A stretch of 64,000 nt of DNA from Spirochaetia bacterium (GTDB lineage Bacteria > Spirochaetota > Spirochaetia > SZUA-6 > Bin103): assembly GCA_965203055.1 (NCBI GenBank), contig OZ241863.1, forward strand, positions 1,792,001 through 1,856,000, read 5' to 3'. Each line of letters starts with the position of its first letter. Position 1 is the stretch's first letter. Position numbers and translations under genes: made by a program. A model generated the notes under the pieces. The model was not told where the DNA came from. It saw nothing but the letters and a program-made list of their open reading frames with translations, and searched no databases. Below, in pieces: positions 12,005 through 12,991 of this stretch.

Positions 12005-12092
12005 GGGATAGTCGGCAACGAGTGACAACAAGCTAATTGTTTGTATGAAAGCGCTTACTCGTACTTGACACATGCCTGCAAAAGGAGATAAG

Positions 12093-12991
12093 ATGGCTCA
12101 ACCGCTCAACCGCTCAACCGCTCAACCGCTCAACCGCTCAACCGCTCAACCGCTCAACCGCTCAACCGCTCAACCGCTCAACCGCTCAACCGCTCAACCG
12201 CTCAACCGCTCAACCGCTCTAAGCCGTTAGTCAGGCAACGGCCCCCGCACCCTCCGGGCGGGCCGATCGCGATAGCTTTTGGCGCTGTCGCCCTACTCCT
12301 CCTAGCAGTCCCGCAGCAAACACTATTTGCAGATAGCCACACCCCGAGGACCGGCATCTATGCCGACGTCGGCGCCGGCGTAGTTCTGATCCACAAGCAG
12401 ACCGACGGCATTTCAGGCTCAATCAAGACCGAACGAGACTCCCGCGTAATCAGCACGACGGATACGAAGGTCGTCTGGGAATACTCTCCCGGTTTCAGCC
12501 TTCACGGAGCCATTGGCTATGGATTCGGAGATGTTCGCGTCGAAGCGGATTTCAGCTATCTGACGGCCGGCGCCAAGGCGTACCAGCCACGCACGCCGGA
12601 CGCCGTCATCCGCGAAATCAAGGAAACTCTCCGAATGAACGTCATCGGCCTCATGGCGAACGGTTGGTACCGTTTCCAGACCGGTACGGGATTTATTCCA
12701 TTTCTCGGTGTCGGCGTTGGCGGAGCGAGTCTCACGGTACCCGCCACGAATGTCCCGGCCGGTACCGAGACTCCCACCCTCGCAGGTTGGGGGCTTGCGT
12801 ATCAGGCGAGTGCGGGCGCGGGCGTCGAAGTTGCTCCCGGCGTGGAGCTCAAACTAGGTTACCGATTCTTCGGAACGACCGAATCGAAGCTGGAATACAA
12901 GAACGAGATCGCGACAACGACGGTAACGGCAACGGCCAGCCCGACCATACTGAGCCATCGTTTCGAACTCGGCGCAAGTTTCCACTTGTAA
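12093..12991 (+). CDS. Outer-membrane beta-barrel (OmpA/Opa-like) protein, out of frame at 15 repeats
   Basis: The downstream frame is open from the SSR to 12991: signal-like IAIAFGAVALLLLA, GIYADVGAG, GAIGYGFGDVRVEADFSY, GLMANGWY, PFLGVGVG, LAYQASAG, LGYRFF, HRFELGASFHL*. The ATG frame stops at TAG 12228. Confidence 0.85.
12096..12215 (+). repeat. Simple sequence repeat (GCTCAACC)15 immediately after the start codon
   Basis: Perfect 8-bp unit over 120 bp, following AAAGGAGATAAG-ATG (ATG at 12093). Confidence 0.97.

Follow-up and report, generated by a model that had tools for sequence, protein, structure and literature searches.

The window, a stretch of 64,000 nucleotides, lies in a single-contig genome of 4.56 Mb (G000) from an uncultured member of the Spirochaetia. 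Part of the stretch occurs in 17 of the 20 sequencing runs listed, and an association with sponges is likely because four runs from one sponge-metagenome study contain 0.32-0.61 of its words. The locus described here comprises the following features.

11975..12004, forward strand: candidate upstream promoter P1, TTGACA-N18-TACAAG, read from the sequence, with a weak -10 box
12065..12094, forward strand: promoter-like site P2, TTGACA-N18-TAAGAT (10/12 matches), overlapping the RBS and the ATG
12081..12087, forward strand: Shine-Dalgarno (SD) sequence AAAGGAG, with the start codon ATG at 12093..12095, both read from the sequence
12096..12219, forward strand: slippery tract (GCTCAACC)15 plus GCTC, with full units at 12096-12215, all perfect
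12220..12230, forward strand: stops of both wrong frames, TAA 12220-12222 and TAG 12228-12230
12221..12331, forward strand: basic linker (KPLVRQRPPHPPGGP), hydrophobic core (IAIAFGAVALLLLAV) and predicted cleavage after LFA, from a hydropathy scan
12332..12991, forward strand: mature outer-membrane beta-barrel with eight inferred membrane strands and long loop hairpins (stop 12989-12991; Pfam, AlphaFold2, Foldseek)
13016..15310, forward strand: papain-family (C1) peptidase with a lipoprotein-like signal and its own RBS (PF00112, 47.6 bits)
15313..22118, forward strand: lipoprotein-like genes at 15313-16560, 16594-17592, 17740-18504 plus 18501-19466 (split) and 20691-22118

The initial annotation had reported an RBS, an ATG at 12093, 15 perfect units, a TAG at 12228 and a TAA at 12089, and each was found exactly as claimed. 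The tandem repeat at 12096-12219 is scored by TRF at period 8, 15.5 copies and 100%, and because only ~1e-56 such runs are expected per genome by chance, the run of 15 units is not a chance product. At this unit number the frame opened by ATG 12093 encodes 45 amino acids before reaching TAG 12228-12230. Upstream, TAA 12089-12091 closes the barrel frame, which is open through the tract, where it encodes (AQPLNRST)n, and on through the signal peptide and barrel to TAA 12989-12991. A codon scan of the barrel frame revealed no ATG, GTG, TTG or CTG ahead of the mature domain, and the only near-start codons before or at that domain are ATC 12266, ATA 12272 and ATC 12356. The earlier proposal that 14 or 17 units (n = 2 mod 3) restore the frame held for constructs made in silico. 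When n was varied from 0 to 21, the full protein was obtained at n = 2, 5, 8, 11, 14, 17 and 20 (296 amino acids at n = 14 and 304 at n = 17), and all other counts gave products of 5-61 amino acids.

Both wrong frames close within two codons after the tract. The null probability of this arrangement is 0.0018, as estimated from random early-ORF positions in 1886 long ORFs, of which 0.18% close both frames within two codons. Such prompt closure of the two wrong frames is explicable only if translation passes through the tract. The repeat had also been assigned to the signal-peptide region, and it does lie near it, but it encodes an N-terminal extension before the hydrophobic core rather than the core itself. 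The linker between the tract and the core has the same length in three orthologs, the predicted ON leaders carry 47-103 residues ahead of the core, and the cleavage after LFA was placed by eye only.

There are eight members of the 90% cluster to which the barrel gene of the window belongs. Three of them are in-frame alleles that start at the ATG and match the unit exactly, namely P0001 with 11 units, P0007 with 17 and P0010 with 32. Each was taken from a different assembly, and they could reflect differences between strains or the calling of a consensus. Behind the tract, P0007 agrees with the window at all 256 residues and P0010 differs at two. The remaining five members, including that of the window, are called from an internal Met; they were not counted as OFF because some are on contigs of 3-4 kb that may be breaks at the tract. 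When the cluster of the sister species is included, 13 of the 17 database entries have the gene called from an internal Met, such that the signal peptide is missing. The in-frame share is 3/8 in the window's cluster and 1/9 in the other, which fits one third, as would a tract that is blind to frame.

The tract was seen in all four sequencing runs examined (X1 to X4), on collapsed contigs at k = 31. On these contigs of 31-letter words, wherein the tract collapses to a loop, the ratio of loop to flank depth gives a mean n of ~16.5 (X3), 17.6 or 10 (X4) and 14 (X1). Other defensible flanks, chosen by hand, give ~8 (X2), 11 (X3), 7.5 (X4) and 27 (X1), and the depth ratios are thus compatible with ~7 to 27 units.

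Matches to the barrel were found in 21 of the 41 genomes searched, all from one family. The closest ortholog, with 58% identity, is carried by a sister species of the same genus (G010). This gene has GGAGATAAAATG followed by (ACCGC)28, a different unit at the same place that again leaves the barrel out of frame. The motif GGAGATAA(G/A)ATG, comprising the SD and start codon, is common to both species. The frame rule in G010 is also n = 2 mod 3, and both wrong frames stop right after the tract, with constructs of 0 and 1 units giving 3 amino acids. Of the nine members of the G010 cluster, one, P0019, has the barrel in frame, at 11 units. The N-terminus of a third ortholog, P0003, reads MPAPHRTAPH; its start Met precedes the repeat, and the sequence would be consistent with a short in-frame pentamer tract. 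The mature domains of G000 and G010 have a dN/dS of 0.38 (bootstrap 0.27-0.52; dS ~0.83).

More distant relatives are built differently. There are five barrel matches in G000, and the four paralogs, at 30-35% identity, all lack a 5' tract. No tract was found among the listed homologs of 30-40% identity, and where their start is clear, the signal peptide is short and ordinary. A comparable N-terminal repeat was also absent from 148 representatives, apart from one unrelated short match. In a scan of JGI metagenomes, none of 80 candidate stretches encodes a relative, and 11 pattern matches have neither tract nor barrel. One of 66 stretches from the genome collection is the sister-species locus, L077. 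As a separate observation, one barrel paralog of G000 is followed, 6 nucleotides past its stop codon, by a C22 run in an apparent terminator stem (C1:205565-205586).

The mature protein matches the Pfam families OMP_b-brl (PF13505, 43.1 bits against a cut-off of 28.7) and Surface_Ag_2 (PF01617, 38 against 22), with Opacity (PF02462, 21.9 against 21) ranking third. AlphaFold2 on a 113-sequence alignment gave a pLDDT of 95.3 and a pTM of 0.87, whereas a single-sequence fold reached a pLDDT of 27.6. The count of eight membrane strands, like the two long loop hairpins, was read off the DSSP line rather than measured. The sequence search ranks 9NH2 first (E 9.7e-21), then NspA (5e-13) and Opa60 (E 5.6e-13), and the top three Foldseek matches are 9NH2, NspA and OprG, with OmpW also matched. 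Atlas clusters are at 0.97. Identity in structural alignments to known barrels is 12-16%, and matches to the Rickettsia adhesin Adr model (NF052636) reach 29-34 bits against a cut-off of 210. The predicted fold and these matches identify the protein as an eight-stranded small barrel of the NspA/OmpW/Opa superfamily (OMP_b-brl / surface antigen). The description of the barrel as Opa-like is thus better replaced by this broad superfamily, in which 9NH2 and NspA outrank Opa60. No ligand or function can be transferred at 12-16% identity from NspA, the WSP-Msp4 and OprG-OmpW barrels or the Legionella porin III (9NH2), which are the best sequence and fold matches. The predicted barrel is probably exposed at the cell surface, where it would act as an adhesin or a receptor for phage.

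Two promoter-like sites accompany the gene. The TTGAC of P1 is 121 nucleotides before the tract and a TTGACA occurs at a similar place in G010, but P1 is missing from a listing of sigma70-like sites in 11800-22300, where P2 is the only such site. P2 has TTGACA at 12065-12070 and, 18 nucleotides on, TAAGAT at 12089-12094, which puts its predicted start site in the first repeat unit. Its counterpart in G010 is TTGACC-N17-TAAAAT, and the DNA further upstream is not conserved. Since shuffles give 1.2 such sites, P2 alone is not remarkable. Counts of TTGACA-xAxxxT sites in the genome are 88 and 69 for spacers of 17 and 18, versus 17, 36 and 19 for spacers of 15, 16 and 19, and on these counts TTGACA-N17/18-xAxxxT is a genuine signal. 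An overlap like that of P2 is seen at 1 of 1716 SD-led ATG starts. Among 503 promoter-like sites, 6 have a tandem tract directly after them, all five long tracts of G000 being among these.

A wider set of 20 tracts with an ACCGC core includes 11, from 5 of 8 locus families, that start at a P2-type -10 box. The nine tracts without such a site are those of G001 (five), G003, G008 and G014, together with a degenerate G000 tract at 1145114. The definition of a promoter at a tract was set after the G000 loci had been seen, and 2 of 10 later non-homologous tracts matched it, both in G015. A combined promoter-plus-tract pattern, which was badly specified and missed known loci, gave 3 matches in 24 genomes against 2 in the control. 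Three paralogous genes for secreted proteins in G000 (C1:2793514, 2798771 and 2995111 on the reverse strand) differ in their repeats: one carries (ACCGCCG)12, another a short 8-base version, and the remaining one no tract. Only the two tract-bearing copies have TTGACA-N17-TACAAA, and the tract-free copy has an upstream ATG in frame.

The anatomy of the barrel locus, its frame rule, alleles of 11, 15, 17 and 32 units and the five-base design in the sister species are direct observations. It is very probable that the tract sets the reading frame of the barrel, and that as units are gained or lost, likely through slipped-strand mispairing, the protein would change randomly between ON and OFF states. 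The initial annotation had proposed a slipped-strand frameshift contingency locus caught in the OFF state, and the comparison across assemblies supports this, with in-frame alleles at n = 11, 17 and 32 versus n = 15 here. It had also named an invariant tract with a downstream start as the contrary case; lengths vary, and there is no conserved start downstream. The tract is not invariant, because three different in-frame lengths and an independent out-of-frame ortholog exist. Taken together, the alleles, the unit swap, the dN/dS value, the wrong-frame stops and the lack of a downstream start argue that the frame switch is maintained and that the upstream ATG is in use.

In ON cells, the repeat would be a basic, non-hydrophobic (AQPLNRST)n extension ahead of a Sec signal peptide and would presumably be removed with it. 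In OFF cells, the ribosome would halt no more than two codons past the tract. P2 would be unable to supply the start codon of the barrel: its transcript would start in the tract without an ATG, so that the barrel would need the weaker upstream P1, from which the mRNA containing the ATG probably comes. P2 itself would then most likely feed the downstream protease genes or raise the switching rate via transcription through the tract. Perhaps the stochastic loss of the barrel hedges against recognition by phage or host.

One other possibility, to which we give little credence, is that the tract is a leader element, wherein transcription starts from P2 within the first unit, the ATG serves as no more than a part of the -10 box, the barrel is translated from a non-canonical downstream codon and tract length tunes expression gradually in the manner of hmw. 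No promoter match within 10.5 kb is better than P2, which is kept in G010, and the -10 box of P1 is weak, but the SD and ATG are likewise kept in G010, and P0003 begins at the Met ahead of its repeat. The TTGACA-N17/18 signal is real in this genome and 11 of 20 ACCGC tracts begin at a P2-type -10 box. However, no ATG, GTG, TTG or CTG precedes the mature domain, and the ATC and ATA codons are without an SD, correspond to GGC and ACA in G010 and, if used as starts, would omit the basic n-region. A graded effect of tract length has a precedent in Haemophilus hmw (PMC12721329), but the present tract yields no unusual RNA structure (z = 0.46).

It is still less probable that the gene is a decaying pseudogene, or the tract a neutral VNTR that simply broke it. 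Both complete genomes examined are indeed out of frame (n = 15 in G000 and n = 28 in G010), but the frame is intact, with a dN/dS of 0.38 accumulated over a dS of ~0.83. In addition, in-frame alleles occur in three ortholog clusters, and the architecture is kept with a different unit. Least probable of all is an assembly miscount of a tract that is truly in frame and invariant: a probable one-base insertion at ~11825 relative to three other runs indicates that the assembly is not error-free, and mixed reads may yield a consensus with any number of units, but in-frame lengths of 11, 17 and 32 and the independent out-of-frame ortholog mean that the tract is not invariant whatever n is here.

A frame-switching tract of this type invites comparison with known systems. 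The CTCTT repeat of Neisseria opa genes encodes part of the hydrophobic core of the signal peptide, and Opa proteins bind CEACAM or heparan sulfate through hypervariable loops. The coding-repeat frame switch works alike in the two systems, and the profile finds Opa60 at E 5.6e-13. Unlike opa, the present locus has an 8-base unit built on an ACCGC core (the unit of the ortholog has 5 bases), and its repeat lies before the hydrophobic core. Instead of 9-12 near-identical loci there is one switched locus with tract-free paralogs of 30-35% identity, the host is an uncultured member of the Spirochaetia, and a promoter-like site overlaps the ATG. The locus works like opa yet differs from it in unit, position and copy structure. 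An Opa identity was considered for the barrel and rejected on unit, repeat position, copy structure and the rank of PF02462. Pentamer frameshifting of opa is a known mechanism of phase variation, and promoter strength is reported to correlate with the opa switching rate (both from PMC13183285).

Long units are known from Haemophilus influenzae, which resembles the present case in its 7-8-base units and in unit swaps at one gene. The hmw1A and hmw2A tracts have heptamer, octamer and nonamer units, and AACAACC occurs in an HI1369 homolog; unit length differs between strains at one gene, and heptamer frameshifts occur inside ORFs (PMC2651432). The 8-bp unit had been called unusually long, but 7- and 8-base units and unit swaps have precedents there (PMC2651432). 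Octamer tracts have also been counted in surveys of hsd genes that include environmental bacteria (PMC7383803). Changes in the hmw repeats need transcription (PMC12721329). The hmw tracts lie in the 5' UTR and act in a graded fashion through a hairpin and RNase III, whereas the tract described here is coding. A 5' UTR rheostat hairpin of the hmw type was considered and rejected, in that no hairpin using the tract is predicted (z = 0.46).

Within the spirochaetes, tp0126 of Treponema pallidum is an OmpW homolog with a poly-G in its promoter and is phase-variable (PMC7864442). It is similarly a small spirochaete outer-membrane barrel under repeat-driven phase variation; its homopolymer lies between -35 and -10 and acts on transcription, whereas the long-unit tract described here affects the reading frame. 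In listings from a library with few subscription papers, no publication was found on repeat phase variation in sponge spirochaetes, or on promoters that fire into coding tracts.

Tracts with the ACCGC core are not confined to the barrel gene. Pattern searches revealed long tracts with 5-, 7- or 8-base units in 8 of 24 genomes of the family, and backward-read controls gave 0-2 matches per search. The units are ACCGC (G010), ACCGCTC (G001, G003, G008 and G015), ACCGCCG (G000 and G011), AACCGCTC (the window locus), AACCGCCG (G000 and G011), ACCGCCTT (G015) and ACCGCCTC (G014). A 6-base core unit at seven or more copies was not found in the 24 genomes, where three matches in G016 are GCC runs, and the 8-base pattern is absent from 68 genomes, many of them fragmented, from other families of the order. 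These searches of relatives covered the ACCGC core only. In G000, all five tracts of at least 60 bases with 7-8-base units carry this core. The core gives Thr, Pro and Arg codons in three frames, which may suit a basic, non-hydrophobic leader.

Some of these loci are observations in their own right. Seven loci (L122-L128; five in G001 and one each in G008 and G003) have (ACCGCTC)n with 5-28 units in short leader frames of 54-108 codons. Both wrong frames are stopped early in most, the leader stop overlaps the start of the next gene (ATGA) in L122 and L124, and in five loci the next ORF is solute-binding-protein-like by eye. This architecture suggests that the leaders might switch by translational coupling. 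Tracts of (CCGCCGAA)n are located on genes that by eye are membrane glycosyltransferase-like (G000:C1:2802638, 2988110 and 2992981, and L130-L131 in G011). Transfer of the region is suggested by the presence of near-identical glycosyltransferase-like loci with other unit numbers in G011, which belongs to another genus. In G015, a 7-mer core tract (L129) precedes a gene that by eye resembles window 15313-16560, and (ACCGCCTT)13 (L133) is ~1.6 kb before a barrel homolog. In G014, L135 has ATG+(ACCGCCTC)19.

These loci raise the idea of a portable ACCGC-core module with interchangeable 5-, 7- and 8-base units, paired at many loci with a dedicated internal sigma70 promoter that would fire into the first unit, be unable to express the switched gene, and serve to drive or tune slippage. 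We regard this as doubtful. If true, the cell would set its own switching rate apart from gene expression. So far, the link between transcription and slippage is a correlation for opa and a requirement for hmw, and if P2 is active and affects slippage, it would allow a clean test of the idea that phase-variation rates are set by transcription.

The barrel locus likely works as a random on/off switch, a type familiar from pathogens. Repeat-driven phase variation has mostly been studied in pathogens with small genomes, and here it concerns a surface barrel in a marine spirochaete that is uncultured and has a genome of 4.6 Mb. Repeat phase variation itself, long units, unit swaps and a spirochaete barrel under poly-G were already known; new here are ACCGC-core tracts with 5-, 7- and 8-base units, the unit swap at the barrel and a promoter-like site overlapping the ATG. 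The ortholog pair has kept the switch around one core while the unit differs (5 versus 8 bases). Public assemblies already contain natural ON and OFF alleles, and long-read sponge metagenomes could give a direct measure of switching and selection in a symbiont.

The C1 peptidase gene starts 24 nucleotides past the barrel stop, no terminator-like site was found between the two, and homologs of the peptidase (52-59% identity) directly follow the barrel in G010 as well. From this arrangement, barrel and peptidase likely form one operon. OFF-state polarity on the protease and lipoproteins, as had been suggested, is plausible and might act through Rho, which is encoded in G000. At the G010 locus (L021), three tandem C1-peptidase lipoprotein-like genes of 1236-1572 amino acids lie 3' of the ortholog, and the upstream chromosomal context is not that of G000. 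For the other six neighbouring proteins that were compared, the 28 kb around the G010 barrel contain no match, and the lipoprotein-like genes of 15313-22118 were not found next to that barrel. GC content over 12-18 kb is 0.59-0.64 compared with 0.69 for the genome, and the term island, used in the initial annotation, would rest on this lower GC and the different context in G010. An absence of the island at 11881 in X2-X4 was considered and is not claimed, as the diverging contig end looks by eye like a diverged intergenic copy.

Several other features of the window are worth recording. The DUF218 gene at 11095-11985 has one extra base near 11825 relative to the X2, X3 and X4 contigs, probably an assembly slip or a variant, that lengthens its frame. 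Upstream, a low-GC region at 8661-11081 encodes an 806-amino-acid protein with SIR2-like and STAND NTPase matches, which we take to resemble an anti-phage sensor. The glycine-rich repeat lipoprotein-like gene at 17740-19466 is interrupted by a frameshift near 18445-18455, where there is no slippery tract, and its paralog at 20691-22118 is whole. Dozens of poly-G/C tracts are found at the 5' ends of lipoprotein-like genes in G000, and one of this family is located at 56431-56450 of the window, where a G20 run (C20 on the coding strand) occupies the 5' end of a lipoprotein-like frame of 773 codons.
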